Part shown: piece after piece, positions 8,056-50,376 of the stretch
Position numbering within the stretch: position 1 is the stretch's first letter
How the letters are laid out: the number at the start of each line of letters is the position of its first letter
DNA from: a virus
DNA: 64,000 nucleotides
Strand: one strand, 5' to 3'
IMG/VR virus record: IMGVR_UViG_3300028837_003734
Span: 1-64,000 of that record
Translations under genes and position numbers: made by a program
The notes under the pieces: model-generated
What the model was told of the DNA's origin: nothing
The model's input: only the letters and a program-made list of their open reading frames with translations
The model's database searches: none

Positions 8056-9285
8056 ATGAAATTTCTTCATATAGCTGATGTTCATTTAGGTATGGAAAAT
8101 TATGGGCGGGTGGATCCCTCTACCGGACTGCACACCCGATTAAAAGATTTTATAAAATGTTTTAGTTTTGCTATCGATATTGCCCTGGATGAAAAAGTGG
8201 ATTTAGTGATATTCACCGGTGATGCCTATAAAAATAGCAATCCCAATCCTACCCATCAACGTGAATTTGCCCAGCAGGCCTACCGACTAAGTAAAGCCCA
8301 GATTCCAGTAGTAATGATAAATGGGAATCACGATAATCCGGTATCTTTTGGTAAAGCTACCTCTTTGGATATCTTCGATACTTTAAACGTCTCCGGGATA
8401 AGGATAGTAACCGCACCCGAGTTATTAGATATTGAAACTAAAGGGGGACCGGTTCAAGTTTTTGGTCTGCCCTGGCCCACCAAGAATCTATTTCTTAGCA
8501 AGGAAGAATATAGGGGTTTTACTGATGAGGAAATTACTAAGGAGATTCAGAAAAGGGCGGGTAAAAAGATTAAGAAATATGCCCTGATGATGAAGCCGGG
8601 TATTCCCGCGATTTTTGCTGCTCACCTGGCTGCTGCAGAAGCAACTTATTCCGGTTCAGAGAGGTCGGCAATAATAGGGAGGGATCCGGTATTTTCCACT
8701 CAGGTATTGGCTCAAAAAGAATTTGATTATGTAGCTTTGGGACATATCCATAAATTTCAGGATTTAAATCTTAACAATCACCCTCCGGTAGTCTATCCGG
8801 GGAGTATCGAAAGAATAAATTTTGGTGAAGAGAAGGATGACAAAGGAGTCTGTTTGGTAAATATAGAAAAAGGCCAGACTTCTTATGAATTTATTCCGGT
8901 CCCCGCCAGAAAGTTCGTTACTATAGACGTTACTATTCCCCAAGGGCAAGACCCTACCGATACTTTAATTAAGGAGATCGAAAAGTGTGACTTAGCTGAA
9001 GCAGTAGCAAGAATATTTTATACCCTGCCAGGAGAGAAAAAGAACTTACTGGATTTTAATAGAATAAATACTGCTTTAGAAGAGGCTTTCTTGATAACCA
9101 CCATTGCCGAAAAGACTAGACCTCTTGAGCGAGTTCAAAGGGTAGAAATTTCGGAGAACTTAGGGATGCTAGAAGCCATGGATAAATATATCCAGAATAA
9201 TCCTGATTTAGTTCCTTTGTCTGGCGAATTAAAAACTTACGCCCAGAAACTTGAGCGAGAATTAGAAGATACGGAAGGAGGATAA
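8056..9285 (+). CDS. sbcD: SbcD/Mre11 nuclease
   Basis: HIADVHLG, GD, GNHD, ALGHIH, YPGSIER metallophosphoesterase motifs. Confidence 0.93.
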   Translation: MKFLHIADVHLGMENYGRVDPSTGLHTRLKDFIKCFSFAIDIALDEKVDLVIFTGDAYKNSNPNPTHQREFAQQAYRLSKAQIPVVMINGNHDNPVSFGKATSLDIFDTLNVSGIRIVTAPELLDIETKGGPVQVFGLPWPTKNLFLSKEEYRGFTDEEITKEIQKRAGKKIKKYALMMKPGIPAIFAAHLAAAEATYSGSERSAIIGRDPVFSTQVLAQKEFDYVALGHIHKFQDLNLNNHPPVVYPGSIERINFGEEKDDKGVCLVNIEKGQTSYEFIPVPARKFVTIDVTIPQGQDPTDTLIKEIEKCDLAEAVARIFYTLPGEKKNLLDFNRINTALEEAFLITTIAEKTRPLERVQRVEISENLGMLEAMDKYIQNNPDLVPLSGELKTYAQKLERELEDTEGG

Positions 9286-9289
9286 AAGA

Positions 9290-11878
9290 ATGATACCAGT
9301 AAAATTAACTCTGAAAAATTTTTTAAGTTACGGTGAAGATGTGCCCCCTCTTGATTTTACCCAGTTCCATGTAGCCTGTCTAGCCGGAAATAACGGACAG
9401 GGCAAATCCGCCCTACTGGACGCCTTAACCTGGACGGTATGGGGAGAAGGAAGAAAGGCCAGCCAGGAGAAGAAGGCCGATAACAGTCTTATTCGGATGG
9501 GCCAGAGGGACATGCAAACAGAATTTGTATTTGATTTAGAGGGTGATAGATATCGTGTTATTAGAGGTTTTTTCCTAGCCCCGAAGAGCTCTCGCTCTAG
9601 CTTGGAATTTCAAGTTTATGACCAAGAAGATAATAAATACGTCTCTCTTACTTGCCCCACCGTTCGCAAAACTCAGGAGAGGATTATTAAAACTTTAGGG
9701 ATAGACTATCAGACCTTCATTAATTCCGCCTTTATTCTCCAAGGACGGATAGACGAGTTTAGCCGAAAAGGTGCTCGGGAAAGGAAAGAAGTTTTATCCG
9801 AGATTTTAGGGCTTTCTCGCTATGATGAACTGGTCGATCTGGCTAAATCCCACCTTAAAGAAGTAAACAATATTATTATGACCAAAGATAGCAGGTTAGA
9901 ATATATCGCTCAGGAATTGGCCCAGGTCGATTTTTATAAAGAGAGGATAAAGGAATTATCCGAGGATCATTCCCGGGTCTCACAAAAAATAGAAGAAAAA
10001 GAAGAACAGATAAATAAATTAAAAGATAGAGTAAACTTCTTAAAACATAAAGGTGAACAATTTGATGAATCGATAAGAAGGATAGAACGGCTAGGACAGG
10101 AGATTACGCGAGGGCAGAAGGAGATTGAATCAAAGAAGGAAGAGATAATATCTTGTGAAGGGATAATCTCCCAGAAAGAGACTATCCTGCTTGGATTTAA
10201 GGATTACCAGAGATTCAATAGCGAAAATAATGAGCTTGTTTTAAAGCTACAGAAGATCAGAAAAGTGGAAGAGGAGAAGATTCTTATCGAGAGAAAGATA
10301 GAAGGTGAGAGGGCTGATCTGGTAATAGAGATTAGGAATAAAGAAGATAGGCATAAAGATTTACAGATTAAGGCTTTCCAGATAGAGGAATGGAAAACCG
10401 AGCTTTCAAAATTAGAAAAAAAGATTAAAGATATAAAATCTCTCGAAAAGGAGAGCGAAGAGATTCAGGAGAAAGGTAATAAACTTAAGGTGAGGTTAAG
10501 TAGTCTTAAAAATCAGATAGCAGGACTAGAAAAGGACATTGGGGATAATGAAGAAAAAATACGTCTATTAAGAGAGAATCCGGAAGGAGAATGTCCTTTG
10601 TGTGAGGCTAAGTTAAATGCCGATAGAAAGAAGAAGATTGAAGCCAATCTAGACGGAGAAATAAAGTTAAACCTTACTGGGATAGAGAAATTAAAGAGAG
10701 AGGAAGAAGAATCAGATATTCAAAGAGAAAAATTGGTAAATAGATGGAAAGAGATTAGAGAGGGCATAAAAGATAAAGATGCTTGGCAACAGCAATTAAG
10801 CAAGGCGCAGTTTGGACTTAAGGAATCTGAGCAAGCAACAAAGGTGATAATCGGTTTGCAGGAGGAGATTAAAAAAATTGAAAAAATAATAGCAGAGAAG
10901 AATTATGCCCTGGAGGAACAGAAAGAATTAAAAGGGCTTGAGGAACAGATTAAAAATATCGGTTATGATGAAGAAAGGTATCGTCAGCTTAATCGTAAGA
11001 TTGAAGAGCTGCATAATGCTCCGGTGGAGAGAGCGAGACTAGAAGAGGCGGAAAAGAAGATTGATTCTTTAAGGACAGCACTTGCTGAATGGCTGGAAAA
11101 TTACCAACAGAAAGACTTGGATTTTAAAGATCTGGAAAAAAAGATAGAGGAAATAAAAATAGAATTAAAGGAATTACCTTCACTGAAAGAAAGGCTAGCC
11201 CAAGAAGAACAATTATTGAAATCTGACCTCATCTCCAGGGAAGGGATCCTAGAAGAAAGAGGCGGGTATCAGGGCAAATTTGAGCAGTGCCTAAAATTAG
11301 AAAAAGAGAAGAAAGATATAGAAGAAGAATTAGAAAAAAGTCGGCAGGAGAAAAACATCTATGAAAAATTGGTGGTGGCCTTCGGGAAGAATGGAATTCA
11401 GGCCCTGATCATCGAAAATGCTTTACCTGAAATTGAAGAAGAAGCTAATAACCTCTTGGCTAAATTAACCAATAATGGAACTCAGATAACCATTGAATCT
11501 CTTCGAGACCTAAAGAGCGGGAGGATAAAAGAGACTTTAGATATAAAGATAAGTGATGAGATGGGCGTCCGGGACTATGAGATGTATAGTGGGGGAGAGG
11601 CTTTTCGGATAGATTTTTCTATAAGGATTGCTCTATCTAAATTACTGGCTAGAAGGGCTGGGACTAGACTGAGGAGCTTGGTCATAGATGAGGGGTTTGG
11701 AACTCAGGATGAAGAGGGCCTGGATAATATAGTACAGGCTATCCAGTCCATAAGTGATGATTTCGATAAGATATTAGTCATTACCCACCTGGAATCAATA
11801 AAAGAGGCCTTCCCGGTAAGGATTGAAGTAACTAAACTTCCAGAAATAGGGTCCCGCTACAAAATCACTAAGGATTAG
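9290..11878 (+). CDS. sbcC: SbcC/Rad50 ATPase
   Basis: Walker A GNNGQGKS, CPLC zinc hook, YSGGE signature, IDEGFG Walker B, long coiled coil. Confidence 0.93.
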   Translation: MIPVKLTLKNFLSYGEDVPPLDFTQFHVACLAGNNGQGKSALLDALTWTVWGEGRKASQEKKADNSLIRMGQRDMQTEFVFDLEGDRYRVIRGFFLAPKSSRSSLEFQVYDQEDNKYVSLTCPTVRKTQERIIKTLGIDYQTFINSAFILQGRIDEFSRKGARERKEVLSEILGLSRYDELVDLAKSHLKEVNNIIMTKDSRLEYIAQELAQVDFYKERIKELSEDHSRVSQKIEEKEEQINKLKDRVNFLKHKGEQFDESIRRIERLGQEITRGQKEIESKKEEIISCEGIISQKETILLGFKDYQRFNSENNELVLKLQKIRKVEEEKILIERKIEGERADLVIEIRNKEDRHKDLQIKAFQIEEWKTELSKLEKKIKDIKSLEKESEEIQEKGNKLKVRLSSLKNQIAGLEKDIGDNEEKIRLLRENPEGECPLCEAKLNADRKKKIEANLDGEIKLNLTGIEKLKREEEESDIQREKLVNRWKEIREGIKDKDAWQQQLSKAQFGLKESEQATKVIIGLQEEIKKIEKIIAEKNYALEEQKELKGLEEQIKNIGYDEERYRQLNRKIEELHNAPVERARLEEAEKKIDSLRTALAEWLENYQQKDLDFKDLEKKIEEIKIELKELPSLKERLAQEEQLLKSDLISREGILEERGGYQGKFEQCLKLEKEKKDIEEELEKSRQEKNIYEKLVVAFGKNGIQALIIENALPEIEEEANNLLAKLTNNGTQITIESLRDLKSGRIKETLDIKISDEMGVRDYEMYSGGEAFRIDFSIRIALSKLLARRAGTRLRSLVIDEGFGTQDEEGLDNIVQAIQSISDDFDKILVITHLESIKEAFPVRIEVTKLPEIGSRYKITKD

Positions 11879-12003: not shown

Positions 12004-12711
12004 ATGCAAACTGCGGTGGTAGCAATGAATAGATTGATTTATATAGTGCTTATAGGCATGCTACTATCAATAACCTATGCTATTTATACCCTGCCAATCC
12101 CGATAGAAGCCGAAGAGTCAAAATACTTTATTATGACTTCGACGGCTTATAGTAATCACCAAAATTGTATTGCTGATAAATGGCGGGATGGCAAAACTGC
12201 AACTGGGACCCCTATAAGGGAAGGTATTGTAGCTATTAATGTGGATCTGATTGATGGTAAATGGGTAGTTAAAAGTCCTCTCAAACTTGGTCAAAAGATA
12301 TATATTGAAGGAATGGGATATTTTAGTGTAGAAGACACGGGGCCATTTACTGAGAAAGATTTTCATTTCGATATCTGGAATCTTGATGTCTATAAAGAAA
12401 ATTATGAACAGGCCAAAGAATGGGGAATTAAAAGAATCAAAGTTTATGTATTAGGGGGGATTAAAAGAATGAGAAGAGATGAAACAGTACGGGAAAGATA
12501 TAAAAGATGGTGGGAAGGGAAATATTGTAAGTTGGCAAAACAAGACAGGAAATTCAAATACGTACAAACGGCAGAGTTCATTGGTCCTCCAAGCGGTGTT
12601 TATGGCACTGTAATTCTTCATTATTTAGATGGTACTTTTGAACACGTTATTCCATTTAACCCGAATGCATTCAAGCCAAGAAAAATGGATGTTGAGGTGG
12701 AGGATGAATAA
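12004..12711 (+). CDS. 3D-domain (lytic transglycosylase-like) protein fused in frame to a paralog of 6138-6383
   Basis: TM/signal segment; STAY..TATG..IA..EDTG..LDVY 3D motifs; second ATG with RBS at about 12469. Confidence 0.7.
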   Translation: MQTAVVAMNRLIYIVLIGMLLSITYAIYTLPIPIEAEESKYFIMTSTAYSNHQNCIADKWRDGKTATGTPIREGIVAINVDLIDGKWVVKSPLKLGQKIYIEGMGYFSVEDTGPFTEKDFHFDIWNLDVYKENYEQAKEWGIKRIKVYVLGGIKRMRRDETVRERYKRWWEGKYCKLAKQDRKFKYVQTAEFIGPPSGVYGTVILHYLDGTFEHVIPFNPNAFKPRKMDVEVEDE

Positions 12712-19348: not shown

Positions 19349-19645
19349 ATGACAGGAGAATTAAGCAGTGGAGAAAGTAAGAAACCAGCGACTACTGGGG
19401 ATATATCAAAAGTCGTTTTTTCCGTATTAGATCGGGCTAAAGAACTGAATATAATTATATCTGAAGTAAATAGCGAGCTAGTTGGTTCCCCGATGGAAGT
19501 GCAAGAGGAAAAGGATCTTGCCAAGAAGGCTTCCGAAGGATGGATTGAAAATGAATATAAAAGACTCTGCGAAATTAGAGAACAAATGAATAGAGTATCA
19601 GAGAGAATGCAGTTATTAAAAAGCCGGCTAAAGACGGAGAAATAA
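19349..19645 (+). CDS. Hypothetical coiled-coil protein
   Basis: ORF with aggagg RBS. Confidence 0.6.
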   Translation: MTGELSSGESKKPATTGDISKVVFSVLDRAKELNIIISEVNSELVGSPMEVQEEKDLAKKASEGWIENEYKRLCEIREQMNRVSERMQLLKSRLKTEK

Positions 19646-19660
19646 GAGAGGTGAACAAAG

Positions 19661-19732
19661 ATGTGGTATTGGTTCATAGGAATTGTAGTAGTGGTGGCAA
19701 TAGTAACATATTTAATATTAAAAAGAAGATAG
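19661..19732 (+). CDS. 23-aa membrane peptide MWYWFIGIVVVVAIVTYLILKRR
   Basis: gaggtg RBS; single TM helix; below ORF-track cutoff. Confidence 0.5.
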   Translation: MWYWFIGIVVVVAIVTYLILKRR

Positions 19733-19742
19733 AAATGAGAAT

Positions 19743-20585
19743 GGGGCGGAGTACTATTGGTATGTTATGTCTAAAGAGCTAATAGAAGAGGCATGTCTCT
19801 GTCCTAGTGGACCGGAAAGCTATAATAAAATTGCTTAAATTGCTACAATAAAGATGCTTCCGGTAGAGGATCGTGAGGCAGAATGCTAAAGGAATGGTGA
19901 TATAAAAAAGCTTGTAATATATCTGCTTTTGCCTCCCAAAAAAAAGAAAATTGAGAGATAGAACGCTAATAGGGAACTGTAGACTGGAGAATTGCTACTA
20001 AATATATGCTTCTATTATTAGATGACAGAAAGATCAAAGAGATGGGCAGAGAGCTAGGATGGTATTGATTTATTTAGTTGGCGAATGCCTCTGTCCGTCT
20101 CTAAGGATGGGGAGGCGGAGTACTGAAAAACATTTTATTCCGAAGATAGATAAAAGCCTTATGTCTCTGCCTAAATCTCCTCGGAAAGCTAAAAGGAAGA
20201 TGCTTAACATGCTATTAGCGAGGTTACTTCCGAGAAGAAGATACTGTGGGCAGAATGCTACTAATTCGATATCGATAGACTAAAGAATGTTTGCTTCTGC
20301 CTTAATAAAAGCTGGGACAGGCAAAGAGCTAAAATTATAATGACTTATTCGTTTAGGCCAAAATTGCCTTTTGTCTATCTTAGATATTAGAAAAAAAGGG
20401 AAGGAGAACTATTATAGCATTATATTCGAAGGGATTACTAATAGAAATATGTCTCTGACTGACAAAACGGAAAGTTAAAGCGATAATGTTTAATGTGCTG
20501 ATCAAGAATTGCTTCCGAATAAAATACTGCAGACAGAATGCTAGCGTAAGAATACGAAAAAGCTATTTATAGATTGCTTCTGCCT
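19743..20585 (+). ncRNA. TIGR-like stem-loop guide array, upstream part (12 units)
   Basis: Each unit: stem-(G/A)CTA-N9-TG..-(G)CTA-N9-TGC-stem, e.g. accggaaa GCTA taataaaat TGC ttaaatt GCTA caataaaga TGC ttccggt (19811-19864). Confidence 0.85.
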
Positions 20586-20611
20586 CGCTAAAGAAAGAAA
20601 GGTGATTTAAA

Positions 20612-21544
20612 ATGTATTTTGTTAAATGGTCCATTAAAAAGGAATTAAAGGTCTTTGATCTCGCGAATGAGAAATCCAAAACCATGGCCCCGAGCGTCGG
20701 AGAATTCTCCAAATTTCTGGATAAGATTGAAAAGGAAAATTCCTTCTATTTCGAGGAAGGTGGCGGAGACTCCTTTAAACTCTTAGCTAGGAGAAGGGGC
20801 CATCAGGTATTTACACTGCCGGGAATCAGAACTAAGGAGTGCCGGGAGAACCTGAAGCTACCAAAAACAGACAAGAACGACGCTTTTGCCGTAAAACATT
20901 TAATTAAGGAGCACCCTGAAGATTTTTATGAATTCAAAGAGCTAGACGAAATGACTGCCCGGATCAGCATAATATTCAAAGAGCGTGCTGATACTGAAAA
21001 GATTATGGTGGCGACTAAATTAAGGCTGTTCGCTCTAAAGAATAGATTAGAATTGGTGAATCTGAACGGATACGAGAAAGAGGCGGTGGAGAAAAAGGAG
21101 GCAGTTATCCAGGCCCTAGAAGAAGATTTCGAACTTCAAACTAAACTATTACAAGCAGAAGTAAGGAAACATCCTGTCTGGAAGGATTATCTAAAGGGGA
21201 TAAAGGGAGTCGGACCTGCAGTAGCCGGTGGCCTGATAACCGGTATTAAAAGGGCTTCCCGGTTTAGCGATAAGTATGCCCTGAGACATTATGCCGGAAT
21301 GGTAGCCAAGAAGGGGAATCAGAGATTTAACCACCAATTGAAGAGGGCATTATTTCATTTTGCCGAACAGGTTATACGACAGAATACTCCGATCTGGCGA
21401 AAGCTATATGATGATATGAAGATTTTTTATGGCAATAAACACCCGGATTGGAGTAAAGGCAAGATAAATAATTACAGCAAAAAGTTTATAGAAACACGAT
21501 TCTTGAATGAATTATTCGAAGAGATAAAGATGGTGGAGAGATGA
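20612..21544 (+). CDS. TasR-like RuvC+Nop-domain RNA-guided protein (IS110-related, no catalytic Ser loop, first RuvC Asp replaced by Lys)
   Basis: FEE, KTDKNDA, coiled coil, LKGIKGVGP, RF....LRHYAGM..N..LKRAL; embedded in the dual-spacer array. Confidence 0.8.
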   Translation: MYFVKWSIKKELKVFDLANEKSKTMAPSVGEFSKFLDKIEKENSFYFEEGGGDSFKLLARRRGHQVFTLPGIRTKECRENLKLPKTDKNDAFAVKHLIKEHPEDFYEFKELDEMTARISIIFKERADTEKIMVATKLRLFALKNRLELVNLNGYEKEAVEKKEAVIQALEEDFELQTKLLQAEVRKHPVWKDYLKGIKGVGPAVAGGLITGIKRASRFSDKYALRHYAGMVAKKGNQRFNHQLKRALFHFAEQVIRQNTPIWRKLYDDMKIFYGNKHPDWSKGKINNYSKKFIETRFLNELFEEIKMVER

Positions 21545-21973
21545 TGCTAAAAGCAATGTGCCCTTAGGCTAGAGTATGATTGCTCATCTCCGATAAAAAA
21601 ATGGAAAGTTGAAAATGTTAGGATGTAAATGTGAATTAGCATATCATTAATAACTTGTTGCTTTTTGACTTTCTAACTGAGGGGCCGGGTTATAAGGAAT
21701 GTTAGATATTGCATGTAATAAAATATTTACTGCTGGTCTTGTGCCTCCTCATAATCCAGTCTGAGCTACTGTAACGGAATAATATAGGGAAGGGATAAGG
21801 AAATGAAAATGGTGGAGAGAGGCTGACAATGAGAGGCTGACAATGACGAACTGAGCTGTTGAGATGACGTTATTTTTAATCTGCTCTAAACAGAATGATA
21901 TAGGAAAAAAAAGAATAGAGAGATAATGCTACAGATGAAGTGCTTTTAAGCTAATTAGAATATGCTTATTTCT
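21535..21973 (+). ncRNA. TIGR-like array, downstream part (about 4 units)
   Basis: e.g. gagatgat GCTA aaagcaatg TGC ccttag GCTA gagtatgat TGC tcatctc (21535-21591); agataat GCTA cagatgaag TGC ttttaa GCTA attagaata TGC ttatttct (21919-21973). Confidence 0.8.
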
Positions 21974-21992
21974 AAGAAAAGGAGGAATAAAT

Positions 21993-22277
21993 ATGTTAAC
22001 CATCTATAAATATCCGATCCCTGTAGAAGACCATTTCACTTTAGAATTGCCTAAGGATGCTAAAATACTGACGGTCCAAACTCAAAGAGGCGCTCCTTAT
22101 TTATGGGCAATGGTAGATTCAGAAACAGAAAAGGAAACTAGGTATTTTAGGCTAAGTGGGACCGGTCATCCTTTGGGTGAAGATTACCTCAGAATAATTA
22201 ATTATATAGGAACTTTTCAAATAGAAAATGGGGCATTAGTATTTCATTTGTTCGAGATTAAGAAAGGAGAATTTTAA
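21993..22277 (+). CDS. Conserved phage hypothetical protein (IYKY..LP..AKIL..LWA.VD..GTG..YIGT..VFHLFE)
   Basis: Recognisable phage motif; aggagg RBS. Confidence 0.75.
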   Translation: MLTIYKYPIPVEDHFTLELPKDAKILTVQTQRGAPYLWAMVDSETEKETRYFRLSGTGHPLGEDYLRIINYIGTFQIENGALVFHLFEIKKGEF

Positions 22278-26069: not shown

Positions 26070-26129
26070 TGCACATATTTGTGATGGCATTCGAAAGAAA
26101 AGGAAAAAATAAAATTGATGAAAATTAAA

Positions 26130-26990
26130 TAACAATATAATGCTCCTGCAAGAGCATTAGAATGTTATTAAAAATTGATGAAAAATAAAGATATGCCTAA
26201 AAATGAAGTTCTGTAATGCTTATTATGTAAGGCTTTCGGAGTGCAAAAAACAAAATTAATTGTACCTCTAGAAAAAAGACTAAAAATATTGAAACGAAAC
26301 GCTAAAAAAGTATAAAAAAAGAGAAGTACAATTTGGGTTTGTAAGGGGTCAAACGCAGTGCTCAAAAATATCTTATTTTATTTTTAAGGAAAAAAACAGC
26401 ATTAAAAATGACCTCTGCAAAACTCTAATCTACACCTTAAAAAAAAAAAAAACGAAATTCGGAAAATCACAAAAAAATGAGCATTAGAATCGAGTCTTGC
26501 AAAAACAAGATCTAATGCTCCAAAATCTCTTAAAAATATTTTAAGGAAAATCTGAGCATTAGAAATGAGTCTTGCAGAACCGAAATGTAGTGCTCTAAAA
26601 ATGCTAAAAATAAAAATAGGGATTTTTCGAGAGATAGAAATAGCCACCTGCAAAACCGAATTCTAGATCTCTTTTTTTTCCCGGAAACTAAATTTAAAAA
26701 TTCTGAAAACGAAAGACGTTTTTTAACCTCTTGCAGGAGCATTAGAAAGACGATAGAAAAAGCACGAAAAATAAAATAAGGGAATTTCTGCGGGTGCTGA
26801 AACGCTTATAAATAAAGAGTTACAAGACACTAAAAAAGGTTTTAATTGTACTTCTCTAAAACTACGCCAAAAATAAAATAACTAACGGTAAAAATGAAGG
26901 TAAAAAAGAGATGTAGGTTTTGGGTCTGCAAGGGGTCAAATGCAATGCTCGAAAAAACCTTAAAATATTTTTAAGGAAAAAAAGAGAAGT
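26130..26990. repeat. AT-rich non-coding block with nested direct and inverted repeats
   Basis: GAGCATTAGAA x4; TAATGCTCCTGCAAGAG (26138) inverted at 26728; about 65-bp direct repeat at 26332 and 26919; CTTAAAA..TTTTAAG palindromes. Confidence 0.75.
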
Positions 26991-27072
26991 AGTTTTACTG
27001 TTTGCGAATGACAGAATGTTGCTGCCCAAAATATTGTAAAAATAAAATAAGAAAATTTGGGAGAAAAAGTAT

Positions 27073-27948
27073 TTGAAAATTGGCATTTTTGATATTGATA
27101 GCAAATATCATAATTTAGCTTTGATGAAATTATCAGCATGGCATAAGAATTTTGGGGATCATACGGAAATATATTTGCCATTAATGAAAAAAACTTATGA
27201 TAAGGTTTATGTTTCAAAGATATTTTCAAAGGGAAATATTAAAGAAGAATATATTCCTGAAAATGCTATTATCGGCGGATCGGGTTTTAATCTAAAAACT
27301 GTTTTACCTTATGATATGGAACATATTAAGCCAGATTATTCTCTTTATAATCTTGATTATTCTCTGGGCTTTACTACCCGGGGCTGTATAAGAAATTGCA
27401 AATTTTGTATTGTAAGGGAAAAGGAAGGCTACATAAAGGAACACGCAGAAGTGGAGGAATTTTTAAATTCTAAATCAAATGTAGTGGTTCTGTTGGATAA
27501 TAACTTTTTAGCCTTACCGAGCCATATTAAAAAATTAAAAAAATATATAGATAAGGGCTGGATAATGGATTTTAACCAGGGGCTGGATATAAGATTGATT
27601 AATGAAGAGAATGCTGAATTGCTGGCCAGAGTGAAACATCTAAAGCAAATACATTTTGCCTGGGACCTGATGGATTATGAAAAAGAAGTAAAAGAAGGAT
27701 TAAAAATATTATTTAAAGCAAGAGTCAAGCCGTATAGGATAATGGTATATATCTTATGCAACTACAATACTAATTTTAAAGAAGATATGTATCGGTTTGA
27801 AGAATTAATCAATTTAGGCATAGATCCCTTTATAATGATTTATGAAAATGGGAATAAAAAAATAAGAGACTTTGCCCGGTGGGTAAATAAGAGATTATAT
27901 AAGGTTTGCGATTGGGATAATTATAAAAGGAGCAGTGATAATAAATGA
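27073..27948 (+). CDS. Radical SAM protein (phage type)
   Basis: NLALMKLS, TRGCIRNCKFC (CxxxCxxC), LDNN, DFNQGLD. Confidence 0.85.
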   Translation: MKIGIFDIDSKYHNLALMKLSAWHKNFGDHTEIYLPLMKKTYDKVYVSKIFSKGNIKEEYIPENAIIGGSGFNLKTVLPYDMEHIKPDYSLYNLDYSLGFTTRGCIRNCKFCIVREKEGYIKEHAEVEEFLNSKSNVVVLLDNNFLALPSHIKKLKKYIDKGWIMDFNQGLDIRLINEENAELLARVKHLKQIHFAWDLMDYEKEVKEGLKILFKARVKPYRIMVYILCNYNTNFKEDMYRFEELINLGIDPFIMIYENGNKKIRDFARWVNKRLYKVCDWDNYKRSSDNK

Positions 27949-28646: not shown

Positions 28647-28823
28647 GAGGCATAGGTAGTTCCTAAAAAATACATTGGCGTAAATTACTACCCGCCTTTA
28701 AAATCATAAGGCATAAGTGGTTCCTATAAACAATTCTGAACAATTGAAATTACCACTCGCCTTAATTAAAAAACATAGGGCATAGGCAGTTCCTATAATT
28801 CAGGTTTGATTTACTGCCCGCCC
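28647..28823 (+). ncRNA. Three tandem covarying hairpin RNAs
   Basis: GGC-ATA-[ggtag|agtgg|ggcag]-TTCCTA-loop-TTA-[ctacc|ccact|ctgcc]-C-GCC at 28647, 28708, 28778. Confidence 0.75.
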
Positions 28824-28839: not shown

Positions 28840-30834
28840 ATGTTAGCGACAATTCGGTTATTTAAGGCCTTGCCAATTAAAACAAAACAAAAAAAATCAC
28901 CCACTGAAGAATTATTGAAAGAAACTATTAAACGGGGGTTTATCTTTTCCCCGACAGTTATTAGTAACTATTCGGAAAGTCAATTACATGAATTCATAAA
29001 ATTAGTTGGAGAAATAGAAGGGATAACTAAAGAAGAGCTCAACGCCTCTTTTCATAAATCTTGGAAGAAGGTAAAGGAAGCAGACATAGAGCAGTTGGTT
29101 GTAGAGCAGGTTGCCCATTATCTCACGACTTATGGCAAAAAAGACCCCATAAGATATCTATTTCAAAAGGAACATTTGGAGAATTGGAAAGTACAAAATC
29201 TATCTGAAAAAATATTTAGCTTAAAGGATTTTGATACAAGTAAGATTTACGATAAAGATTACGTCTACATTCCTAAAGAAATATTGGAAATCCCTGAAAT
29301 AAATGTAGATGAAATAAAATTGGTAGTTATAAAAGGATATACCAAACATGAAATTAAAGATAAATTGATGAAACTGCTTAATTCTGGGATTGCCTTAAAA
29401 GAAGACACGATAAATGATGTTGTAGATGTGGCTTTGTTTGTAGATATAAATGAAAAAGAAATCGAGACTGTAAAAAATAAGGAAGTCAGGGTTATTTTAT
29501 ATGAATATCTGAATCTGATTCCCGAAAAACCTGTCGAATTCCTTCGGTATCTTGTTTATGTTGCAACAGATAAAACATTATTGATTAAAAACAAAGAATT
29601 AATAGATGAGATAAAGGAAAAGAAGAATATCAAGATTGTTAAACTTTTTAGAGATTATGATAAAAAATACGGATTAGAAAAATTAGCGGAAATATTTCTG
29701 AGATTCAAGCCCCTATTTTTGGGTTTTCGTACTAATAGAGAATTAAAAACAATTATTAATCGGATAAGGAAACTTGCCATCAAATATCATCGGCCAATGC
29801 CAGAAGACTTTTTAAATTGTGTAACAGCAAAAATCAAAAAGGGTGAGAAAATCGATAGGGATAAATTAGAAAGTGAATTAGAAAGGGTTAATGTTTGGAG
29901 AAAAGTAAGATTGGCTTATGCCTTAAAATTCAGGACGAAAGAAGACATCGACTCGATTTTATACAGAATACGGAATGGAAAAGCGTTCGCTGAAGACTTC
30001 TATTTTAAGAACAAAGAGATGGCAAAAAATATTTTAGATATTGTCTTAGATTCTACCATTAAAGACATTGGGAAAAATCTAAAAGGCAAGAAAATTTATA
30101 TCCCCGATTTTATGCATTATGCTTTACCTACCTCCTTAAAACAATTCACGGGTAACTTTCCCTCAGGGACGTATATCTCTGTTCCACAGGATATGATTGT
30201 TGGAATTCATTGGGGAAATGTTAAACATAATAGGATAGATTTAGACCTTTCTTTAATCTCTCCATCAGTTGGAAAGATTGGCTGGGATGCTAATTATAGG
30301 ACAAACGAAGGGAATATTTTATTTTCAGGTGATGTTACCGACGCGCGTGAACCTAAAGGGGCTACAGAATTATTTTATGTGGAAAGACAATCAAAAGATG
30401 AGTTCATCCTTTTCTTAAACTACTTTAATTATGATAGTGAAATAAAAGTCCCTTTTAAAATAATTGTTGCTAAAGAGAAGGTCAAAAATTTCAGAGAAAA
30501 TTATATGGTTAATCCCAATAACATTGTTTCAGTTGTCCAGTCTGAGATTAGTCAAAAACAAAAGATACTGGGATTATTGATTACTACAGTAAATAGAAGT
30601 AGATTCTATTTTGCCGAGACATCAATAGGCATGTCAATCACGTCACGTAATAATGAAGTTGCTGAAAATGCCAGAAAATATCTTATAAATTTCTATCAGA
30701 ATAGTATAGAACTCAAAGATATTTTATTGAAAGCTGGAGCTAAATTAGTTGACGATAAGGATAAGAGCGATATTGATTTATCTCCTGAAGTATTAGAAAA
30801 AGATACAATTTTGAATTTACTAATTGAAAAATAA
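28840..30834 (+). CDS. Large helical protein with C-terminal TerD-like domain
   Basis: GIHW.N...IDLDLS, FSGDVTDA..GATE motifs; helical N-terminal two-thirds. Confidence 0.6.
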   Translation: MLATIRLFKALPIKTKQKKSPTEELLKETIKRGFIFSPTVISNYSESQLHEFIKLVGEIEGITKEELNASFHKSWKKVKEADIEQLVVEQVAHYLTTYGKKDPIRYLFQKEHLENWKVQNLSEKIFSLKDFDTSKIYDKDYVYIPKEILEIPEINVDEIKLVVIKGYTKHEIKDKLMKLLNSGIALKEDTINDVVDVALFVDINEKEIETVKNKEVRVILYEYLNLIPEKPVEFLRYLVYVATDKTLLIKNKELIDEIKEKKNIKIVKLFRDYDKKYGLEKLAEIFLRFKPLFLGFRTNRELKTIINRIRKLAIKYHRPMPEDFLNCVTAKIKKGEKIDRDKLESELERVNVWRKVRLAYALKFRTKEDIDSILYRIRNGKAFAEDFYFKNKEMAKNILDIVLDSTIKDIGKNLKGKKIYIPDFMHYALPTSLKQFTGNFPSGTYISVPQDMIVGIHWGNVKHNRIDLDLSLISPSVGKIGWDANYRTNEGNILFSGDVTDAREPKGATELFYVERQSKDEFILFLNYFNYDSEIKVPFKIIVAKEKVKNFRENYMVNPNNIVSVVQSEISQKQKILGLLITTVNRSRFYFAETSIGMSITSRNNEVAENARKYLINFYQNSIELKDILLKAGAKLVDDKDKSDIDLSPEVLEKDTILNLLIEK

Positions 30835-32311: not shown

Positions 32312-33748
32312 ATGAAATATCCCGAAGATTTTATAAATAAAATAATATGTACTGATTGCCGGGAAGGCATGAGAGATATTCTGGATGGGAGTATTGATTT
32401 GATGGTAACGGATCCCCCTTATGGTTACGCATTCATGCAACGGAATTGGGATAAAGCTTTAGTAAATATGGGCACTTGGAGGGAATGTTTAAGGGTGTTA
32501 AAACCAGGAGCCTTTGCCTTTATTATGTGTGCTCCCAGACAAGACGTATTAAGCAGACAGATAATAAATCTAGAGGAAGCGGGATTTATAACTGGATTTA
32601 CAAGTCTATATTGGGCCTATGCCAGTGGTTTCCCGAAGGCAAGTAATATTGGGAAAATGGTAGATAAGAGATTGGGAGTAGAAAGAGAAAATGGAATTAA
32701 AGTACCTAGACACTATCCGGACCAACAGCATTGGGGGAAACCTACAAGTAGAAACATAATAGCACCATTTACTCCAGGCGGAAAATATGAAGGAGAAATT
32801 GAAATTGCTATGAAAGAAATAACAATTCCCGCTACTCCCCAAGCTAAAGTTCTAGATGGCTCTTACAGTGGATTCCAACCTAAACCTGCAGTAGAAGTTA
32901 TCCTTGTGGTGATGAAACCATTATCAGAGAAAACTTATATGGAGCAGGCCCTAAAGAATAGGAAAGGGATAACTTGGCTTGATAAGGGGAGGATACCTTA
33001 TAAGGGGAAAAATGATTTTATAATTTCCCACCATAATAAACAATTAAAAGAGAAGGATAAATCAACGGGAATGTTTGGAGCTACAAATGGATTCGGATTA
33101 CTCGAATCAAATATATCCCAAGGCCGTTTCCCTGCCAATCTTTTAGTAAGTGATGATGTATTAAATGATGGAAATAAACATTCATCAAAACATACTCGAT
33201 TACGAGAACGATTTAAACAGTATAGACAGAGAAGCAATATTTATATGGATACAAATAAGATGCTTAATTGGAAGAATATTTATTACGATTCTGGCTCATT
33301 TTCTCGTTATTTTGACCTCGATAAGTGGTGGGTAGAGAAGATCAAACAACTACCTGAATCAGTCCAAAAGACTTTTCCTTTTCTAATTGTGCCAAAGGCA
33401 AGCAAGACTGAGAAGAACAGAGGATGTGAGAAATTAGAGGAGAAAGCAAGGGCAAATATAAATAAAATGATGGGAGAAGCAGGGAATTTTAAAACTGGGA
33501 GTGGCAATGTAAGGACTGTTAAATTTAAAAACCACCATCCCACCGTGAAACCAATCAAACTAATGAGCTATTTAATTATTTTAGGCAGCCGTACAAATGA
33601 TATTATACTGGATCCCTTTGTAGGAAGCGGGACGACTTGTATTGCAGCTAAGATGCTAAACAGAAGATATATCGGATTTGATAATGACGGGGGATATGTC
33701 GAGATTGCACGGTCTAGAGTAAGAGCGATAGAAGCAGTTTTAATTTAA
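32312..33748 (+). CDS. DNA N4/N6 methyltransferase (beta class)
   Basis: TDPPY, HPTVKP, DPFVGSGTT. Confidence 0.9.
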   Translation: MKYPEDFINKIICTDCREGMRDILDGSIDLMVTDPPYGYAFMQRNWDKALVNMGTWRECLRVLKPGAFAFIMCAPRQDVLSRQIINLEEAGFITGFTSLYWAYASGFPKASNIGKMVDKRLGVERENGIKVPRHYPDQQHWGKPTSRNIIAPFTPGGKYEGEIEIAMKEITIPATPQAKVLDGSYSGFQPKPAVEVILVVMKPLSEKTYMEQALKNRKGITWLDKGRIPYKGKNDFIISHHNKQLKEKDKSTGMFGATNGFGLLESNISQGRFPANLLVSDDVLNDGNKHSSKHTRLRERFKQYRQRSNIYMDTNKMLNWKNIYYDSGSFSRYFDLDKWWVEKIKQLPESVQKTFPFLIVPKASKTEKNRGCEKLEEKARANINKMMGEAGNFKTGSGNVRTVKFKNHHPTVKPIKLMSYLIILGSRTNDIILDPFVGSGTTCIAAKMLNRRYIGFDNDGGYVEIARSRVRAIEAVLI

Positions 33749-33786
33749 ATGATATTCTTTGGGTATTTTTGAGGAAATTATAACCA

Positions 33787-34413
33787 ATGTCAAAAATAAT
33801 TCTTGATTTATGCGGTGGAACAGGGGCTTGGAGTAAAAAATATAAAGAGGCTGGATATATCGTGATAAATGTTACTTTACCTTTTTATGATGTTTTAAAG
33901 ACTGAGATAAAAGGCAAATATATAATCTTCAAAGGTGGGATCGAAAAACCGCTCAGGTTTAGGATTGATGATATCTATGGAATATTAGCCTCACCTGTTT
34001 GTACTATGTTTAGCCTGGCTAGGACAAGTGCTAAAACACCGAGAGATTTTAGGCAAGGTATGGAATTGGTAATAGCCTGCCTAAATATAATTTGGGAATG
34101 CCGTTATGATCATAAATTAGCTTTTTGGTGTTTAGAAAATCCGATGGGCTATTTAAGACAATTTTTAGGTAAGCCGGTATTTACTTTTGACCCTTGCGAC
34201 TTTGGGGATTCTTACACGAAAAAAACTGATTTATGGGGATACTTTAATATACCAAAAAAGAAGCCAGTAGAACCTATTTTTGTTACAGACAGTAAGAGTA
34301 GAAAGAGATATAGCCAAATACATTTTTCGGCCGGAAGTGGTCAAAAATCCAAAATGTTAAGAAGCATTACCCCATCGGGTTTTGCTCGAGCATTCTTTGA
34401 AACGAATAAATAA
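33787..34413 (+). CDS. Short C5-methyltransferase-like phage protein
   Basis: LDLCGGTG, ASPVCT, LENP, KKTDLWG, RSITP. Confidence 0.7.
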   Translation: MSKIILDLCGGTGAWSKKYKEAGYIVINVTLPFYDVLKTEIKGKYIIFKGGIEKPLRFRIDDIYGILASPVCTMFSLARTSAKTPRDFRQGMELVIACLNIIWECRYDHKLAFWCLENPMGYLRQFLGKPVFTFDPCDFGDSYTKKTDLWGYFNIPKKKPVEPIFVTDSKSRKRYSQIHFSAGSGQKSKMLRSITPSGFARAFFETNK

Positions 34414-34450
34414 ATGATGGCTCGGGATCTCGACTAAAGGAAGTTTATCA

Positions 34451-36064
34451 ATGATTAATACAATAATTTTAGGACACGCTTTAGATGTCTTACCACAATT
34501 ACCAGCAGAATCAGTCAGTTGTATCACTACCTCGCCACCTTATTGGGGTCTCCGGGATTATGGAATTGAGCCGGTAATATGGGATGGGGATAAAAACTGT
34601 AAGCATGACTTTGGCGAATATAACTCAAAATTGTTACATGAAAATAGGCAAAATTTAGATGGTGGCACGTTAGGCAATCCAAAATATAGAGAAAATCTGC
34701 ATGGTTTTGGTAATGCAAAAGCAGGATTTTGCTCTAAATGCGGAGCTTGGCGCGGTAGCCTTGGCCTTGAACCGACCTTTGAATTGTATGTAAAGCATTT
34801 ATGCAACATCTTTGACAGAGTAAAACGGGTATTAAGGAAAGACGGAACCTGCTGGGTAAATATAGGAGACAGCTATGGAGGCAGTGGGAATGCTTCAGGA
34901 CACAGAGAGGACACAAGAAATTTAGGCTATAAAACTTCAGAGATGGGAGCTACTAAGGGTAATCAAAAAACTACTAGACAATATGCTAAAAGTTTATTGG
35001 ATATCCCCTATCGCTTTTCAATAGAGATGATTAACCGGGGTTGGATCAAGAGGAATACAATTATCTGGTGGAAACCGAATTGTATGCCTGCAAGTGCAAA
35101 TGACCGGTTTACCATAGATTTTGAATATTTATTTTTCTTTACCAAAAACAATAAAGCTATATTCTGGACCAACGAAAAGACTTTAGAATGTGTAGATAAA
35201 AAACCACTGGGAATTAAGGGGGTAGAGGGAGAAGACTGGGAATGGAGACTAATCGGAGAAAATTATAATACTAAAATAAGCAGGGAGGATGCTGAAAGAT
35301 ATAATTCTCTTAAAGCAAGAAAATATAGAAAGAAAGAATGGAAAAAGGTTTCATTATGGAAAGGACATGATTATTGGTTTGAGCAGCAGTTTGATAAATA
35401 TGCACTTAGTACGTTACCTCGGATGAAAAGAGGAGTCAACGTTAATAAATGGACATTCGGGGCTGATGGACAGACCCCACATAATTTGAGCCAACCGAGA
35501 TTAAATAAGAAGAGGGGATACAAAACAAAGCAGCCGGAGAAGGAAATACAAGGACCGCAATATCATGGCAAAGATATCAGTTATGGCAAACAAGGCCGCA
35601 ATAAACGTTGTGTCTGGAAGATACCAACAAAAAGTTTTAAGGCAACCCATTTTGCAACTTTCCCCGAAACATTAATCGAACCGATTATTAAAGCAGGATG
35701 CCCTGAATTTGTCTGTAAGAAGTGTGGGAAGGCAAGGTTAAGGATATATAAGTTTACAGGAAAGTATGAAAAATGTGGGGGCAAAGATAGCATAACAGCA
35801 GAGAAAATACATAAAGCTAGTCCCACAAGCACATTATTGACCGGTAAGAGAAAAGTTAATGAAGAAATTGGTTACACTAACTGTGGCTGCGATGCAGGTT
35901 TTGAGGGCGGTATAGTTTTAGATCCCTTTATGGGGGCCGGGACTACCGCGTTGGTAGCCTTAAAACAGAGAAAAAGATTTATAGGGATTGAAATAAAGCG
36001 AGAATATATAGATATGACAAATAGGAGAATCAGAAAGGTTCAGCAAGAATTCAATTTAGGATGA
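34451..36064 (+). CDS. DNA N4/N6 methyltransferase with Zn-ribbon insertions
   Basis: TSPPYW, HFATFP, DPFMGAGTT; CSKC, CKKC, CGC. Confidence 0.9.
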   Translation: MINTIILGHALDVLPQLPAESVSCITTSPPYWGLRDYGIEPVIWDGDKNCKHDFGEYNSKLLHENRQNLDGGTLGNPKYRENLHGFGNAKAGFCSKCGAWRGSLGLEPTFELYVKHLCNIFDRVKRVLRKDGTCWVNIGDSYGGSGNASGHREDTRNLGYKTSEMGATKGNQKTTRQYAKSLLDIPYRFSIEMINRGWIKRNTIIWWKPNCMPASANDRFTIDFEYLFFFTKNNKAIFWTNEKTLECVDKKPLGIKGVEGEDWEWRLIGENYNTKISREDAERYNSLKARKYRKKEWKKVSLWKGHDYWFEQQFDKYALSTLPRMKRGVNVNKWTFGADGQTPHNLSQPRLNKKRGYKTKQPEKEIQGPQYHGKDISYGKQGRNKRCVWKIPTKSFKATHFATFPETLIEPIIKAGCPEFVCKKCGKARLRIYKFTGKYEKCGGKDSITAEKIHKASPTSTLLTGKRKVNEEIGYTNCGCDAGFEGGIVLDPFMGAGTTALVALKQRKRFIGIEIKREYIDMTNRRIRKVQQEFNLG

Positions 36065-50200: not shown

Positions 50201-50376
50201 TTTCGGAAGAACAGCACCATAAAGGTGGCATGTCTCCAAAGAATCTTTTGGAAAAAGGAGATTGGTGGATGAGCGTATATCTTGGGGATAAAGAAAACAA
50301 AGATATTTGGGAAAGAGTATTAAAAAAAGAACTGACTGGATTTAGCATGGCCGGGAGGGCTTCGAGTCCTAGATAA
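47221..50376 (+). CDS. Polyprotein: D12-class DNA adenine methyltransferase + nucleotidyltransferase-like + Zn domains + C-terminal XkdF-type prohead protease
   Basis: PGGKR, F.GGG, INDLD, LDPPY; GS..NDIDIL; CMEC/CLIC; IVGGVVY..DSQQD..MH..W..LTGFSMAG. Confidence 0.75.
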   Translation: MELKEIKKLTEQGEGEYFEDVEKGCRPAFGSPGGKRYLAKTIVSYIPEHKTYVENFVGGGAVFFAKEPSEVEVINDLDKDIAFAYRFMKKISDEDLKKLKKKNWVGNKNHFDNLKKSKPENDLERFYKFVYTMRFSRFKNYVSSFEGQEADCTSALPNVKERLKNVKIENNDYKESINYDSKETFYYLDPPYPDTENKTIGGNISLVELHDFCKKIKGKFILSLNDVNTIKEAFKDFHIKKVKVLQSFSNTEGTQEFRRELLISNFPLKKENIYLSKSDEVLIEDLPSFVWIPEFINIAGSLFYEREGNRKPNDIDILVRAKEEDDKFTITLDKSLRLKIDRILEQRVGKMSGKWLTPEWLGSTFGPNWRYQTGWDLVLVPHQPQEIREMNEPEFASEFYKEENYEEFCDFGGGHFSKFVEEHPEFESEEFREYVIVHNRADRDSGELEDIAASEILRLAKEFAQEKNIQINKRHSREKCMECDKPPFWECLWAEGIGHAWFCKKHFKEWATTGDGKGEIVYVKEVKDGIAAKKFGENRNPNIWAELKREFAKEFYKKLSDKQREEYEKETAVINENKKKPQAEKVHRFKSAKWTHPNGHPRCLICGSDSPVGGVCNMPNSWYEKHRYDDEEAWKKEREILREKGIIKQGIDWVNSPTLAYLSVYGEMPNTPLRGRSNYPKRIWNDKEVDKEFKDNWLEDLNSIPDIEVRATDIGHSADRVAFVVFRFKDKKNDSKAKDIADSLNKLAELYCKSDIGTEGRPRICVAGKIKLGDKNWEEWWNSLAGKIKGIVKEEFEKLDLEQFKAEGIDDDLKNPAKRWRELLADIRYLFNSGYPKLKEGEKWGEWDLTILLKYGSKIVDTLRNKCYFTLIPAKIGEKEYKSSYWKAYREAREKGYIKSKPPTEREVKEWDEKRKEIIKDGQEIAKFTFKKIDEAEHIVGGVVYFSYKTDSQQDWTSPPEVWKALKHFMLKKKTIKVMHQGVKRDIPIIENYFSEEQHHKGGMSPKNLLEKGDWWMSVYLGDKENKDIWERVLKKELTGFSMAGRASSPR

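Follow-up and report, generated by a model that had tools for sequence, protein, structure and literature searches.

A phage locus with dual-spacer hairpins around a TasR-like protein is probably a stem-loop TIGR-Tas system

What does a phage do with a 310-amino-acid (310-aa) protein whose gene is surrounded by tandem hairpins, each of which carries two short variable segments? Such a locus lies at 19743-21975 of the window, by which we mean the whole 64,000-nucleotide (nt) stretch analyzed here: the first 64 kb (positions 1 to 64,000) of the 76,069-bp single-contig virus record IMGVR_UViG_3300028837_003734. TIGR-Tas is a recently described family whose compact RNA-guided systems target DNA and do not depend on a protospacer-adjacent motif (PAM). 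We conclude that the locus is very probably a genuine member of TIGR-Tas. More specifically, it is likely to be a phage-encoded stem-loop system of the TasR type, for which the most likely output is DNA binding by a nuclease-dead protein. All of the sequence features of stem-loop TasR systems that could be tested are present, with two exceptions: the score against the family model NF052498 lies under its cut-off, and the DEDD motif of the RuvC domain is not intact.

The locus consists of about 870 nt that are free of open reading frames (ORFs), the 310-aa ORF (tasR), and then about 430 nt of non-coding DNA. The hairpin units on both sides share the plan stem-(G)CUA-N9-UG-loop-(G)CUA-N9-UG(C)-stem. 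Thirteen units are in register: an 11-nt 5' arm is followed by CTA, N9 (spacer A), TG, and a loop of 6-15 nt, and the second half is made of CTA (or TTA/CTG), N9 (spacer B), TG, and a 3' arm that starts with C-T-T. We delimited these 13 units by hand, aligned them with MAFFT, and built a covariance model (R1), which we used without filters to scan both strands of the window as well as the last 12 kb of the genome. R1 recovered the 13 training units at 37-53 bits and added three untrained ones (units 1, 6, and 15; Table 1). We grade 13 units as strong, one as clear, and two (units 6 and 15, both decayed) as weak. All are on the + strand, with 12 upstream of tasR and four downstream. An earlier note on this DNA had described about 16 hairpin units flanking the gene, and R1 arrives at 16 if the two weak units are counted. 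Outside the locus, no R1 match in the window exceeded 14.4 bits on either strand, and there were zero matches in the last 12 kb of the genome. (One minus-strand match inside the array scored 15.2 bits.) The model thus finds the units of the array and nothing comparable elsewhere, and tasR and its array are single-copy in the 76-kb genome.

To examine the stem, we considered nine base pairs in the 13-unit alignment, with one nucleotide bulged out ahead of the closing G-C pair. Overall, 90.5% of the cells are paired, as compared to 46-56% when the 3' partner is shifted by 1-3 columns. All nine pairs change on both sides (that is, the changes are compensatory), and the covariation score was reached by none of 500 shuffles. 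The stem of the unit is real, with covarying arms. The claim in the earlier note that stems differ between units yet stay complementary holds, with one correction: the 5' arm has a conserved one-nucleotide bulge directly before its closing G. The boxes are also distinct from the spacers in their conservation, as box columns carry 1.0-2.0 bits (most have 1.6-2.0) versus 0.0-0.9 bits for spacer columns. The 11 spacer pairs that had been listed in that note are all at the places given there, framed by CTA or TTA and TG boxes. The units match no Rfam family at E <= 1, and a scan for promoters and terminators found no excess over shuffles.

Table 1. Hairpin units and tasR in the window. Bits are R1 scores; spacers are given as A / B.
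Feature	Position	Strand	Scaffold type	Spacers	Bits	Remarks
Unit 1	19743..19806	+	A	irregular second box ATA-GAAGAGGCA-TG	29.1	untrained, E 1e-3
Unit 2	19809..19867	+	B	CTA-TAATAAAAT-TG ... CTA-CAATAAAGA-TG	53.1	L001 spacers identical
Unit 3	19875..19936	+	C	AAGGAATGG / TAATATATC	42	L001 spacers differ at matching position
Unit 4	19955..20019	+	D	ATAGGGAAC / CTAAATATA	43.8	L001 spacers identical
Unit 5	20043..20098	+	E	GGATGGTAT / GTTGGCGAA	43.9	
Unit 6	20112..20174	+	A		18	untrained, E 0.27; boxes decayed, stem intact; hairpin in predicted fold
Unit 7	20178..20236	+	B	AAAGGAAGA / TTAGCGAGG	41.4	second box D is TT
Unit 8	20247..20304	+	C	CTAATTCGA / AAGAATGTT	47.5	
Unit 9	20318..20377	+	E	AAATTATAA / GGCCAAAAT	39.2	L001 spacer A 1 nt different
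Unit 10	20398..20462	+	A	TTATAGCAT / ATAGAAATA	37.5	
Unit 11	20464..20522	+	B	AAGCGATAA / ATCAAGAAT	47.1	
Unit 12	20530..20587	+	C	GCGTAAGAA / TTTATAGAT	45.7	
tasR, 310 aa	20612..21544	+				RuvC fold 1-107 (K5, E48, D87, D90), coiled coil ~110-184, Nop-type RNA-binding domain ~185-310
Unit 13	21536..21593	+		AAAGCAATG / GAGTATGAT	44.5	tasR stop codon within 5' arm; L001 spacers identical
Unit 14	21607..21671	+		GGATGTAAA / ATAACTTGT	37.3	TTA boxes
Unit 15	21691..21754	+			11.4	untrained, E 7.5; weak/decayed, possible remnant only
Remnant of tasR 3' end and unit-13 5' arm	21800..21846	+				14-nt tandem repeat (21817-21846); decayed copy
Unit 16	21918..21975	+		CAGATGAAG / ATTAGAATA	51.6	scaffold paralogue of unit 13

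More than 100 homologues of tasR are found in sediment and subsurface metagenomes, and we fetched 7 viral and 80 metagenomic loci for comparison. In 88 loci with tasR relatives, R1 identified 317 units (E <= 0.01), and all 317 are on the strand of the gene. These units sit upstream of the gene, downstream of it, and, in some distant relatives, within the coding sequence. Intragenic units were described by Xu et al. (2026, bioRxiv 10.64898/2026.09.09.750476). In four of our loci (L006, L079, L080, and L081), which encode longer proteins (~360 aa) at ~36% identity, the R1 matches inside the tas coding sequence look like such intragenic tigRNA units; for example, L006 has matches at 504-566 and 738-797 inside the tas match at 391-1479. 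A search of genome contigs found only one distant relative, in an Aminicenantes metagenome-assembled genome, and a tblastn search of the INPHARED phage collection gave no match to the protein.

Are the 9-nt segments guides, or are the hairpins structural or regulatory repeats, such as repetitive extragenic palindromic (REP)-like elements or attenuators? That our target searches (described below) found no targets is what one might expect of such repeats. However, these boxes hold, to the nucleotide, a set position relative to two hypervariable 9-nt segments; the units co-occur strictly with a tas gene, in the same orientation, across the 88 loci; and their layout is identical to that of stem-loop tigRNAs whose processing was demonstrated experimentally (Faure et al. 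2025, PMC12045711; Xu et al. 2026). We consider it very improbable that the hairpins are repeats of this kind.

If the segments are guides, then how variable are they? Within the close clade (>=83% identity), we parsed 226 units cleanly and counted 148 distinct spacer pairs among them. In composition, the spacers are moderately rich in A and poor in C. Five scaffold types can be told apart among the upstream stems, which run A-B-C-D-E, A-B-C-E, A-B-C, and each copy has unrelated spacers. More generally, wherever a scaffold recurs within one locus, its units never have related spacers (3-9 differences per 9-mer), and only 2 of the 148 spacer pairs are found on clearly different stems; otherwise, pairs stay with their own scaffold. 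Spacer distances between same-scaffold units from different loci are bimodal, and this comparison is confounded by paralogy, as a scaffold is shared by several units per array. Evidence for turnover was instead taken from the comparison within loci and from matching positions in L001, a syntenic phage with 90% protein identity. L001 has the same spacers in units 2, 4, and 13 and a single 1-nt difference in unit 9. In others of its units at matching positions, both spacers have been replaced, and the boxes and stems are retained. So the 9-nt segments are not invariant among homologous loci, as they could have been if the earlier note were wrong.

The downstream part of the array includes traces of how it may have grown. 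Unit 13 overlaps the 3' end of tasR. In L001, the stop codon within this unit is TAA instead of TGA, its partner in the 3' arm has changed from C to T, and the pair is preserved. The remnant at 21800-21846 is a decayed copy of the 3' end of tasR and the start of unit 13, and the scaffold of unit 16 is a paralogue of that of unit 13. Taken together, this suggests growth of the downstream array through duplication. The direct repeat for the remnant, D14, matches 21521-21546 to 21800-21825 with 81% identity.

The protein is the second part of the argument. In a search of PDB sequences with the single sequence, TaTasR (9MTY) was the only significant match (E = 3.3e-13, 23-24% identity). With a family profile, 9MTY was matched at 3.5e-23, TasH at 9e-5, and IS621 at 0.004. 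The best family in NCBIfam is NF052498, TIGR_Tas_endo ("TIGR-Tas system RNA-guided endonuclease"), with 78.1 bits (E = 9e-22). We obtained an AlphaFold2 model with a pLDDT of 92, for which Foldseek ranks 9mty first (1.7e-12), followed by IS621 (~1e-8) and ISCro4, TasH (~1e-5), and then Nop5-type proteins. VIA-align gives Z scores of 22.2 to 9mty (271 aligned residues, root-mean-square deviation 4.4), 18-19 to TasH over residues 112-310, 17.9 to IS621, and 9.0 to Nop5 (8-9 across Nop5/Nop56/58). Residues 1-107 align to the RuvC domain of 9mty and to RuvC of T. thermophilus (Z 8.5), and residues 108-310 form the coiled coil and the Nop domain. Overall, these results support the identification of the protein as a TIGR-TasR homologue (RuvC, coiled coil, and Nop) that is closest to TIGR-TasR by both sequence and fold; the RuvC-plus-Nop architecture that had been proposed for it, with Nop in the C-terminal half, is borne out. 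PADLOC gave no match.

The protein is also predicted to form a symmetric homodimer through two long helices (117-183), with an ipSAE of 0.68 as compared to 0.00 for the best of 3 controls. The partner has a pLDDT of at least 87, and at least 94% of contacts agree between runs. In calibration, the ipSAE mark was passed by 20 of 30 proteins that were solved as same-chain pairs and by 1 of 23 that were solved as single chains. Because a similar complex (9MTY) was already solved, this pass may reflect likeness only.

An IS110-family insertion sequence would have some of the same features: in this scenario, a bridge-RNA-guided recombinase inserted into the phage, and the hairpins are akin to bridge RNAs. 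PHROGs does label the protein as "transposase," and Pfam's PF02371 matches above its cut-off (30.7 bits, E = 4e-7), with a weak, sub-threshold match to PF01548; however, the NCBIfam model for IS110 (NF033542) gives 47.1 bits, as compared to its cut-off of 140 and to the 78 bits for NF052498. The fold resembles that of IS621, as noted above, yet the serine nucleophile of that recombinase (S241; PMC11208158) is absent. The profile alignment to IS621 stops at R240, which is opposite K234; S241-G242 would fall on G235-N236; and there is no serine within residues 228-245 (AGMVAKKGNQRFNHQLKR). The first Asp of the DEDD motif is missing as well. As for the RNA, a bridge RNA would be single, with two loops, whereas the locus has about 16 dual-spacer units in tandem.

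The remaining argument for an insertion is that the module is absent from the same position in sister phages. In one sister (L090/G001, IMGVR_UViG_3300008517_000034), the flanking proteins are 83-90% identical, and there is neither a tasR nor any unit at this position. But the slot is not vacant: five small ORFs occupy it (L090:1760-3500), and three further relatives hold other genes there. None of the sister phages that we compared has a clean empty site, nothing indicates transposition of the insertion-sequence type, and the module is single-copy. Because the sister and the further relatives carry other genes at this place, the tasR module occupies a variable accessory slot. (The slot ORFs in L090:1760-3500 and in a second sister phage, L092:1360-3500, encode proteins of 79-138 aa or, in one case, 277 aa, and some of these are Cys-rich.) The earlier note had argued that this was not an IS110 insertion, and we agree: we think that an IS110 element is extremely unlikely.

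Does the protein cut DNA? In the family profile, the N-terminal motif "avDWa" aligns to AVD11WS of TaTasR, and the corresponding residues in the window protein are FVK5WS. So it lacks an intact DEDD tetrad: K5 is at the position of D11 of TaTasR, and E48, D87, and D90 are present. We extracted the tas ORFs from the fetched loci and compared this site in 74 proteins. Among the proteins at 83-100% identity, position 5 is Lys in 21 of 22 and Arg in the other one. Among more distant relatives (39-60% identity), it is Asp in all 51 that are readable. E48 is present in every tas protein compared, and D87 and D90 are in nearly all of them. In TaTasR, D11A abolishes cleavage (PMC12045711), and the equivalent residue of IS621 (also D11) is essential, with recombination lost without it (PMC11208158). 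Xu et al. (2026) reported that dead stem-loop TasR proteins are RNA-guided repressors and that an Arg occupies the dead pocket of PateTasR. As judged from the alignment, the close clade has a fixed, clade-specific swap of a key metal ligand for a basic residue, which resembles the Arg of PateTasR. Because the first catalytic Asp is Lys or Arg throughout the 22 close relatives, we lean towards a nuclease-dead binder rather than a cutter.

The main alternative for this step is that the same TIGR-TasR system is still an active RNA-guided nuclease or nickase, in which Lys5 is tolerated or compensated and which cuts the DNA of the host or of competitors. E48, D87, and D90 are invariant or nearly so in the K5 clade, the full DEDD motif is retained in sister clades whose arrays are of the same kind, and TasR and TasH proteins with intact sites cut DNA as nucleases (PMC12045711). 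Yet the residue that has been replaced is the very Asp whose loss kills cleavage by TaTasR and recombination by IS621, and a basic residue is fixed at position 5, like the Arg in the dead pocket of PateTasR. We judge continued cutting to be unlikely.

A disabled RuvC site is also a feature of Nop5, which leads to another explanation: a box C/D-like small ribonucleoprotein (sRNP) that guides RNA modification, for instance 2'-O-methylation, in which a methyltransferase would be recruited by the dead RuvC-like domain, as happens in Nop5. The C-terminal half does have a Nop fold (Z 8-9 to Nop5/Nop56/58), but the protein is far nearer to the DNA-targeting TasR and TasH than to Nop5. Several methyltransferases are encoded by this phage; these are over 10 kb away and match DNA methyltransferase families. 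There is no fibrillarin or L7Ae gene adjacent to the locus (the rest of the genome was not searched exhaustively), and the consensus of the units includes only CUA and UG, without the RUGAUGA/CUGA boxes of a kink-turn (K-turn). We give very little credence to a role in RNA modification.

How might a stem-loop TIGR-TasR system of this kind operate in the phage? By analogy with characterized relatives (Faure et al. 2025; Xu et al. 2026; Guan et al. 2026), the array would be co-transcribed with tasR (+ strand), and the RNA would then be split into tigRNAs, each a single hairpin of roughly 55-65 nt. A dimer of TasR, joined by its coiled coil, would bind one pseudo-symmetric tigRNA, so that each protomer reads one CUA/UG box pair, and the two spacers would pair with opposite strands of a contiguous 18-bp site in DNA, with no PAM. 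The most likely output would then be that the RNA guides the protein to host or competing-element DNA, where its binding, without cutting, blocks transcription or replication. We expect binding rather than cutting because the residue equivalent to D11 of TaTasR is Lys here and is Lys or Arg in every close relative.

To look for targets, we combined the spacers of the 148 pairs from the close clade as A plus the reverse complement of B and as the reverse complement of B plus A, and we searched both strands of the 76-kb phage genome, the tas-less sister G001, G002, and G003, along with four scrambled control configurations. Matches with up to 2-3 mismatches were no more common than in the scrambled controls for these 148 pairs in the four genomes, so that the 18-bp sites that the earlier note had proposed to look for, in both orders, did not emerge above controls here. 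Nor is there self-avoidance of short words: in the phage's own genome, the middle 6-12-mers of the predicted targets are as frequent as controls. At 12299-12325 of the window, TATATATTG-AAGGAATGG-GATATTTTA has an exact copy of spacer A of unit 3 between near-copies of the reverse complement of its spacer B. There, A plus the reverse complement of B matches 12308-12325 at 17 of 18 positions, inside an ORF (12004-12711) that belongs to no known family. This match may be due to chance (roughly p = 0.05), the controls give similar single matches, and no claim here rests on it. Host DNA and unrelated mobile elements are the obvious candidates for targets.

Several observations count against our preferred reading of the locus as a TIGR-TasR system with a binding output. 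These include the lack of an excess of targets in the four genomes and the weakness of two of the 16 units. Also, 78.1 bits for NF052498 is less than the curated cut-off of 100, which, from the sequence comparison, we read as a sign of a divergent member of the wider Tas family that is probably not an equivalog of that model. Three of the four acidic residues of RuvC (E48, D87, and D90) are still conserved in the K5 clade, which could reflect residual or altered catalysis, such as nicking. Finally, transcription and processing of the array are expected from characterized relatives, and DNA targeting by this locus is expected from homology.

Systems of this kind were already in the literature, and the locus brings no new principle with it. 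Faure et al. (2025, PMC12045711) defined TIGR-Tas and showed stem-loop arrays (in their Fig 7), with two spacers of 8-12 nt, flanks that are similar to box C/D, variable palindromic stems, and sub-arrays around the gene. Xu et al. (2026) cataloged 2,559 stem-loop arrays, determined two structures of stem-loop TasR with dead RuvC and CUU/UG boxes, and showed RNA-guided repression. A structure of stem-loop TasA was solved by Guan et al. (2026). Thus, the novelty that was implied by the earlier note does not stand, while its description of a stem-loop variant with a CTA box does: CUA is a variant of the CCA box of TaTasR and the CUU box of PateTasR.

The stem-loop TasR proteins of Xu et al. (2026), PateTasR (329 aa) and CsTasR (547 aa), are among the closest known systems, as drawn from their published descriptions rather than from a direct comparison of sequences. 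They share the RuvC, coiled-coil, and Nop domains, and the size of the window protein is near that of PateTasR. Their tigRNAs are likewise hairpins of ~54-65 nt with two ~9-nt spacers, a YUN/UG pair that occurs twice, and variable, covarying stems. Units are upstream and downstream of the gene and overlap its 3' end, the RuvC site is disabled, and the C-terminus is short and without the Y/H processing loop. The differences are that the boxes here are CUA/UG rather than CUU/UG; that the locus is in a tailed phage from marine sediment rather than in a bacterium of the candidate phyla radiation (CPR); and that one of four catalytic residues is replaced here (D to K/R), with the DEDD motif kept by sister clades that have the same arrays.

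TaTasR itself (PMC12045711), a dual-repeat system, is the best match by sequence and fold and has the same order of domains, a coiled-coil dimer, and dual 9-nt spacers that are followed by UG. However, its tigRNAs are 36 nt, with fixed edge and loop repeats (UG...CCA), and its DEDD site is active, whereas the locus here combines stems that are variable and palindromic with CUA boxes and has Lys in place of D11. The stem-loop TIGR-TasA systems (PlTasA, BlTasA, and MbTasA; Faure et al. 2025; Guan et al. 2026; Xu et al. 2026) share the array layout, with the gene flanked on either side by sub-arrays, and probably also an output of DNA binding alone, but TasA has no RuvC domain and the window protein keeps a complete RuvC fold. 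IS110/IS621 (PDB 8WT6-8WT9; PMC11208158) shares RuvC, a coiled coil, a C-terminal RNA-binding domain, and two-segment guides that read both strands of DNA; it is set apart by its S241-type nucleophile, its single two-loop bridge RNA, its mobility (of which there is no sign here), and its NCBIfam model, which the window protein scores far below. The box C/D sRNPs of archaea and eukaryotes (Nop5/Nop56/58) share a Nop and coiled-coil dimer, two guides per RNA beside short boxes, and an inactive RuvC-like N-terminal domain; here, there are no K-turn boxes and no adjacent fibrillarin or L7Ae, and Z is ~9 as compared to 18-22 for Tas.

As for the setting of the locus, the genome encodes a large terminase, a portal, a head morphogenesis protein, and a tape measure, as expected for a tailed phage, as well as a DnaB-type helicase, SbcCD (8056-11878), and several DNA methyltransferases. 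Among the large proteins, at least three (478, 537, and 1051 aa; 32312-36064 and 47221-50376) resemble DNA methyltransferases, and a 964-aa ligase-like protein is encoded at 43594-46488. Almost all of the large ORFs are on the + strand. The same sequence, including the array, is present on contigs from three independent sediment studies, which excludes an assembly artefact. A look for RNA sequencing runs that contain the locus found none, and a metatranscriptome of the same sample as one of the DNA data sets with the locus gave no match to it. The locus is bounded by a small gene upstream (19349-19645) and by a gene for a 94-aa protein downstream (21993-22277), which is followed by a ClpP-like protease. 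Directly 5' of unit 1 (19662-19732) is a 23-codon ORF (MWYWFIGIVVVVAIVTYLILKRR) that would form a single hydrophobic helix.

Two other repetitive regions are found in the window. Upstream of a radical-SAM gene (27073-27948), there is a 1-kb non-coding stretch (26109-27059) of ~42-bp dyads with a period of ~75-82 bp. The dyads have conserved arms and variable inner segments (for example, GAGCATTAGA-N9-TTGCAA-N9-TCTAATGCTC at 26479-26521), with an AT-rich palindromic linker between dyads. In this dyad array, 9-mers similar to the TIGR spacers are not enriched beyond what is explained by AT-richness. And an ORF for 664 aa (28840-30834), without a PHROG match, has three tandem hairpins directly upstream of it, at 28648-28823. 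These have the form GGCATA-stem-TTCCTA-variable loop-stem-CGCC, and their 5-bp stems show compensatory changes.

What is specific to this locus is the CUA box, the clade-fixed change of D to K/R beside sister clades with intact DEDD, the block-wise order of scaffolds, and the location in a variable slot. A 310-aa protein with guides of roughly 60 nt may interest the developers of tools. For the biology of TIGR-Tas, the locus offers a natural case that is well resolved and has many relatives to compare it with (over 80 loci, with 148 spacer pairs from the close clade). The clade-wide K/R beside sisters with intact DEDD, the array in scaffold blocks, and this set of relatives make it convenient for testing transitions from cutter to repressor and the turnover of spacers. 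Tentatively, and we are doubtful that both parts of this are correct, a stem-loop TasR within one phage lineage may have recently turned from a cutter into a binder by a single fixed change of Asp to Lys/Arg, and the A-B-C(-D)-E blocks of scaffolds may record how the array grew, with blocks of several units being duplicated and both spacers then replaced. In that case, the clade would provide a naturally matched pair, one active and one dead, in which to study the targets of phage TIGR systems and how their spacers are renewed.

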